Source: a virus
Taxonomy: Duplodnaviria > Heunggongvirae > Uroviricota > Caudoviricetes
IMG/VR virus record: IMGVR_UViG_2775506858_000003
Location: 1-64,000 of that record
Length of the DNA stretch: 64,000 nucleotides
Strand: one strand, 5' to 3'
Position numbers and translations under genes: made by a program. Of the stretch, positions 47,396-50,506 are shown piece by piece. Positions within the stretch are counted from its first letter, which is position 1; each line of letters opens with the position of its first letter. Under the pieces are notes generated by a model. It had not been told where the DNA came from and did no database searches. It saw nothing but the letters and a program-made list of their open reading frames with translations.

Positions 47396-47891
47396 AAAAT
47401 TATTATGTATCGTTTATCAGATAAAGATATTGAATTTATTGAAACTGATATGACCAATTTATCATTAACAAAATCTTGAATTTTTGTATTTGTAAAGGAG
47501 TACTTAGGAAGCATTGCAAAACTAGTGAGAAGATTATTCTTACCTACACCCTAAAATATATAGTGTTTTATTTTTTCATGTTCATTTTTAATAAGAATAC
47601 TATCGTACTTATCTTTTTCTAAATTTTTGTCTATTAGCTTCTGATTGGAGCTTTCTCTAAAATTCTCAAAATTCTTGTGTTGCTCTGAATTAAGTTGCAT
47701 CTCTTGTGAAATTAACTGTAAAAACTCATCTTCATGTAAAACTGAGTTTTGAATTCTATACCATTCATTAACTACAGCTCTGTAAGATAATAAAAAACAT
47801 TGATTACTAGATAAAATAAATGGAGAGTTTTCAATTGGTGAGAATATTTGTGCATCATGGATAGAACAGAAGCCCTATATTGGGACAGTCA

Positions 47892-47944
47892 CACTTGCTT
47901 GCGGTTTGATTTGGTTGAAATTATGAATGTTCAACAGACCCTAG
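47892..47944. mobile_element. solo IS end remnant (53 bp, inverted copy of the left end of the IS at 49533)
   Basis: rc of 47892-47944 matches 49531-49583 with about 4 mismatches. Confidence 0.6.
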
Positions 47945-48008
47945 ATTTGCAAAAAAACTAAAATTATAATTCATACGTATTTTATAAAAAACTCTGGGAA
48001 AATTTTGT

Positions 48009-49382
48009 ATGAAAGAACAAATATACTTTACTTTTTTGTCGATAAAATCTTGTGCAACTTACAAAATAGAATTTAATCCTAATACATCAAACAATTCATT
48101 GATTTACTTTATACAAGATTTCATTCAAACCTTTAATGGACAAGTATGTTTAACGCCCGAAGGTAACAGATTGGAAATAAATTGCTATCAAAAAAATACT
48201 TTAGAACTTCAGGCTAAAGTTTTAAAATTAGTTAATCGCAACAAAAGTAACCAGCCTGTAATAAATAAGATAAATGATTTTATAAAAAAATTATCAATCA
48301 ATGAACATTTTTTTATTTTACCAGTTGATTCAGCATCTATTCCATTAAAAAATCAAATTATGATGGCAAATGAATTAATGAGTTTAAACAACCCATCTCT
48401 AGACTATAACGATTTAGAAAATAGCTTCAATAAATTATTTGGACATATTATTGAGAAATACAAGTCATTTAGCCCCTCAATAGAAAAGAAAACCAAAATT
48501 GGTAAAGGACTAAAAACAGATAGAGTCTGTCGTTTTTGTCATAAAGACTCATCTCAAACATCATTTAAGAAAATTGCTCACGCAATTCCAGAAGCACTTG
48601 GCAATAAAAATATAATTCTAAACGAAGAATGTGACATTTGTAATGAAAAATTCTCACAAACTCTAGAAAAAGATATTTTAGTTTATTTGAGGCTTTTCAA
48701 TACATTTTATCAAGTGAAAAATAAAAATAATAAAGTCCCAAAAATAAAACAAAGTAATTTTGAGATGGTACATATTAACCCTAGTCTTGAAGAGAATAAG
48801 GAAATAATTGAAAAGGCTAAAGAGATATCAGAACATCCGTTCAACCCTAACAATTTTTTTGTAATTGTTTCTAGACAGAATAAAGATTCTTCAGCGCTAA
48901 GTGATACTATCCATTTTAAACCACCTACTATTTCATTTGATTCTGACGAAAAAATTATCTTACAAAATATATATAAAGCTCTAGTAAAGTTTGCATTAAG
49001 TTGCATTAAAACAGAAGATCTAGAGGGCTTCAAAGAAACATTAAATTGGATTGCGGATGAAAATTTATTTAAAGAAAATTTACCAAAAGTAGCTGTCTTA
49101 TTAAATCCAGAAAAATTGGAATTACATCCAAGTATAACCATTCATATAAGAAATGATGATGACACCTCCTTACCATATGCAGTGGGTGAATTTCACTATA
49201 CTACCTTTGTATATGTTTTTATAATTCCAACATTTAATGGAAAAGAAATTGAATTTAATAAATTCAAAGATTTCTTTAGCTATTATCAATTTGATAAACT
49301 TCCTTGGGTTTTTAATGACTTTAATGATTCAACACCAAGAAAACTTTCTTTGAAAATAAACTTTGAAGAAAATAAGAAATAA
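48009..49382 (+). CDS. AT-rich orphan protein with central HNH-like nuclease motif (CxxC...HxIPxxxGNxN...CxxCN)
   Basis: RVCRFCHKDSSQTSFKKIAHAIPEALGNKNIILNEECDICNEKF around aa 170-215. Confidence 0.5.
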   Translation: MKEQIYFTFLSIKSCATYKIEFNPNTSNNSLIYFIQDFIQTFNGQVCLTPEGNRLEINCYQKNTLELQAKVLKLVNRNKSNQPVINKINDFIKKLSINEHFFILPVDSASIPLKNQIMMANELMSLNNPSLDYNDLENSFNKLFGHIIEKYKSFSPSIEKKTKIGKGLKTDRVCRFCHKDSSQTSFKKIAHAIPEALGNKNIILNEECDICNEKFSQTLEKDILVYLRLFNTFYQVKNKNNKVPKIKQSNFEMVHINPSLEENKEIIEKAKEISEHPFNPNNFFVIVSRQNKDSSALSDTIHFKPPTISFDSDEKIILQNIYKALVKFALSCIKTEDLEGFKETLNWIADENLFKENLPKVAVLLNPEKLELHPSITIHIRNDDDTSLPYAVGEFHYTTFVYVFIIPTFNGKEIEFNKFKDFFSYYQFDKLPWVFNDFNDSTPRKLSLKINFEENKK

Positions 49383-49547
49383 TTTAAAATCTGATAGCTA
49401 AACCAATAGCTATCAGATTTCTTAGAGTTCTATTGCTCACTAGAAATATATGAAAATAAATTTTCCCATCTATTCCAAATTTATTAAGTTTAATCTCACA
49501 GGATTATTGTTCAATAATTCGGTTCATAAATAGGGTCTGTTGAACAT

Positions 49548-50069
49548 TCATAATTTCAACCAAATAAAGCCACAAGCAAGTGCCTCAGTGCCAATGTAAC
49601 TATTCAACAGCTTGTCGTAACGGCTGGATAATGCACGGAAATGTTTTAAATTAGCAAATGTGTTTTCAACCACATGCCTTGTCTGATAAATCAACCAGTT
49701 CATATGGGAATTGCTGGTTTTGGCATTTTTCTTGCGCGGAATATTGGCTTGAACCCCTCGATAATGAATCAGCTCTCTAAACGCTTCAGAATCATAGCCT
49801 TTATCCGCATTTAATAACTCGGTATCTTTCAAATCCAAGAGTTGCAGCAGCATGGGCGCTATTTTAATATCGTGGGTGAGTCCGTCACTCACAATAAATT
49901 CAAGCGGATTACCATGTGCATCAACAGCCAAGTGTATTTTTGAGCTGTTGCCACCAACACTTTTGGCAATGCATTGATGGTCGCCACCTGCTGAGCCAGC
50001 GCTGCTCTGATGTGCTCGAACATGAGTGGCGTCAATTGAGATCCACTCCACATCAGAATTCTTAATCAA
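49548..50069 (-). CDS. IS5-family transposase OrfB (DDE domain)
   Basis: HLAVDAHGNPLEFIVSDGLTHD typical DDE_Tnp_1 region. Confidence 0.75.
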   Translation of the reverse strand: MIKNSDVEWISIDATHVRAHQSSAGSAGGDHQCIAKSVGGNSSKIHLAVDAHGNPLEFIVSDGLTHDIKIAPMLLQLLDLKDTELLNADKGYDSEAFRELIHYRGVQANIPRKKNAKTSNSHMNWLIYQTRHVVENTFANLKHFRALSSRYDKLLNSYIGTEALACGFIWLKL

Positions 50070-50302
50070 TCTTTTGAATAATCTGTAAATAACCCTGATG
50101 ATGACCAGCGTCTAACTGCTTTAAATACGGTATTGGGTTTGCCATAACAGCTGGGTAAATACCGCCACTCGCAGCCTGTTTTGAGGCGATAAATGATTCC
50201 TAAAAAGGTCTCTTTTAAACTGGGTTTGTCATAGACATTTAAATCTAGGAGAATGGGCTTTAGCTTCAGCCATTGCTCCTCTGTGATGATGGTTGTAAGC
50301 AT
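50066..50302 (-). CDS. IS5-family transposase OrfA (N-terminal HTH part; probable frameshift fusion with OrfB)
   Basis: YRLKTGCEWRYLP...FKAVRRWSSSGLF motif of IS5-family N-terminal domain. Confidence 0.7.
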   Translation of the reverse strand: MLTTIITEEQWLKLKPILLDLNVYDKPSLKETFLGIIYRLKTGCEWRYLPSCYGKPNTVFKAVRRWSSSGLFTDYSKD

Positions 50303-50506
50303 GGATAGAGGGTGTTGAAAAGATTGTTTGGCGATAAGATTTTAACGCTCTTTATCCACTCCATTCAAATGTTCAACAGACCCTACTTTAACAAATTATA
50401 TAAATTTTAAAAATTAAATTGCTACTTAAATAAGGGGAACAAGAAAAATTAGATGCCCTAAGCCAAAGATAATAAGCCCATTACAACAGTGTAGTGGGCT
50501 TTTTCA

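Follow-up and report, generated by a model that had tools for sequence, protein, structure and literature searches.

In the 64,000-nucleotide stretch of viral DNA that we analysed (the window), an intact gene on the + strand at 48009..49382, identified from the list of open reading frames and by Pfam, encodes a 457-aa protein of the HNH_5 family. The reading frame and its very low GC content (26.8%, compared with 43.0% for the window) are as described in an earlier note. An identical protein is on record as 'HNH endonuclease' of Vitreoscilla massiliensis (WP_058356862.1 / UOO89159.1), and comparison of the gene with its relatives gives dN/dS = 0.14-0.41.

A perfect TATAAT hexamer read from the sequence 38 nt 5' of the ATG (47965..47970, + strand) is a possible -10 element for the gene. 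The sole -35 candidate at 17-nt spacing is TAGATT, which overlaps the junction with an insertion sequence (IS), and a scan for consensus promoters did not call the hexamer. Directly 3' of the stop codon lies a terminator-like hairpin with a 15-bp stem (49386..49421). This is conserved along with the gene in relatives, and falls inside a 90%-identical block (47988-49461) that the window has in common with three other loci (L002-L004).

Insertion sequences flanking the gene

On the 3' side is a complete IS5-family element of 851 bp (49533..50383, - strand) with perfect 16-bp terminal inverted repeats; the terminal 16-mer GGGTCTGTTGAACATT occurs exactly at 49533-49548 (+) and 50368-50383 (-). The element and its TA flanks (49531-32 and 50384-85) had been recognised before, with limits of 49533-50384 (852 bp) that are now resolved into the 851 bp and a TA duplication. 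Metagenomic copies of its end are preceded by TA in 17 cases out of 17. On the - strand, orfA (50066..50302, from the ORF list and a profile match) encodes 78 aa with DUF4096, and orfB (49548..50069) a DDE transposase domain (DDE_Tnp_1 in Pfam at E=7.8e-20; transpos_IS5_3 in NCBIfam at 157 bits, where the cut-off is 110 bits). An A_AAA_G slippery site at ~50071-50075 would link orfA to orfB in the -1 frame. A search of PLSDB gave no relative of the element more than 69% identical over its full length.

On the 5' side lies a solo IS5-family remnant (47876..47941, + strand) with its tip facing the HNH gene, recognised by inverted match, translation and an exact 16-mer. It encodes the last ~16 transposase codons (YIGTVTLACGLIWLKL and stop) together with the terminal inverted repeat. 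The inverted match between 47876-47943 and 49531-49598 extends over 68 nt at 87%, headed by the 16-mer in its third exact occurrence (47926-47941, -), and identity to the complete IS spans the first 35 nt only. The remnant is indeed an inverted IS end, but not of the same IS as had been proposed: it shares 92-94% identity with another isoform, from metagenomes (L130/L135), itself 87% identical to the complete element.

Between the two ends is a segment derived from a defence island (47942..49532, + strand), comprising 67 bp 5' of the HNH gene, the gene itself and the terminator. By blastn it is 98% identical to three uninterrupted loci on other contigs (L091, L092 and L093). The homology breaks off precisely at the IS terminus on each side, with none past either end, and TA dinucleotides at both ends of the segment mark the points where it joins the IS ends. 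Such precise termination is what favours the earlier suggestion that the gene is cargo of a decayed composite transposon. That reading is plausible, although the ends on the two sides are of different isoforms and the left-hand copy is reduced to 68 nt. A search for the IS-gene-IS unit at a second site found none.

The HNH core and its flanking domains

The predicted nuclease core, of beta-beta-alpha-metal type with a Cys4 zinc site, occupies 48504..48713 (+ strand; Pfam, alignment and AlphaFold). The HNH_5 match covers aa 174-222 (48528-48674; E=1.2e-10, 41.5 bits against a Pfam cut-off of 27.5 bits), and includes CRFC (aa 174-177), AHAIPEALGNK (190-200) and CDICN (208-212). The core residues are C174, C177, H191, N199, C208, C211 and N212, and this Cys4/His/Asn/Asn set is invariant in 95 relatives, within the best-conserved region of the protein (2.9 bits). 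The His-His pair of the motif proposed earlier is absent; at least 90% of family members have Ala directly before H191, giving an Ala-His core. Since the Pfam cut-off is passed, the core is invariant and the AlphaFold model is confident, the assignment as an HNH nuclease is supported, by both the profile search and the structure prediction that had been suggested as checks.

The core is preceded by an alpha/beta domain (aa 1-165; 48009..48503, +), the least conserved part of the protein, and followed by an alpha+beta domain (aa 236-457; 48714..49379, +) with invariant residues K239, Y322, W347 and P389 and a subclade-specific insertion at aa ~256-285. Neither domain has a match in Pfam, PADLOC or solved structures. 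To the ~230 aa C-terminal of the core already noted as unassigned may be added ~170 aa on its N-terminal side.

A large family beside anti-phage systems

The gene is not the orphan it was taken for. We found 223 word-indexed homologues, 120 genome loci and 2134 clusters at 50% identity (E<=1e-10); at least 880 clusters at 50% identity share the same layout, all at ~420-450 aa. Near-identical copies (98%-identical DNA) directly adjoin Mokosh or PDC-M26. For copies with lower nucleotide identity across the coding sequence the neighbour is an OLD-like ATPase with adjacent Tn7-like transposition genes (93%), a type III R-M system (91%) or a Ppl-like gene (78%). The window itself has a bSEFIR gene at a distance of 6.8 kb. 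The gene belongs to a large uncharacterised family found beside known anti-phage systems.

No neighbour or partner gene is conserved across ~77 loci, which supports the stand-alone single gene that had been anticipated. The genomic context described above suggests the proposed restriction or abortive-infection role, but a control comparing adjacent with distal positions gave no clear difference.

IS activity may have placed the gene where it now lies, with prophage debris on one side and a polyvalent-protein block on the other. Because its large family sits beside known anti-phage systems, the gene is a reasonable candidate, from genomic context, for a new single-gene defence system; the protein would then be a single-protein defence nuclease that is independent of a methyltransferase.

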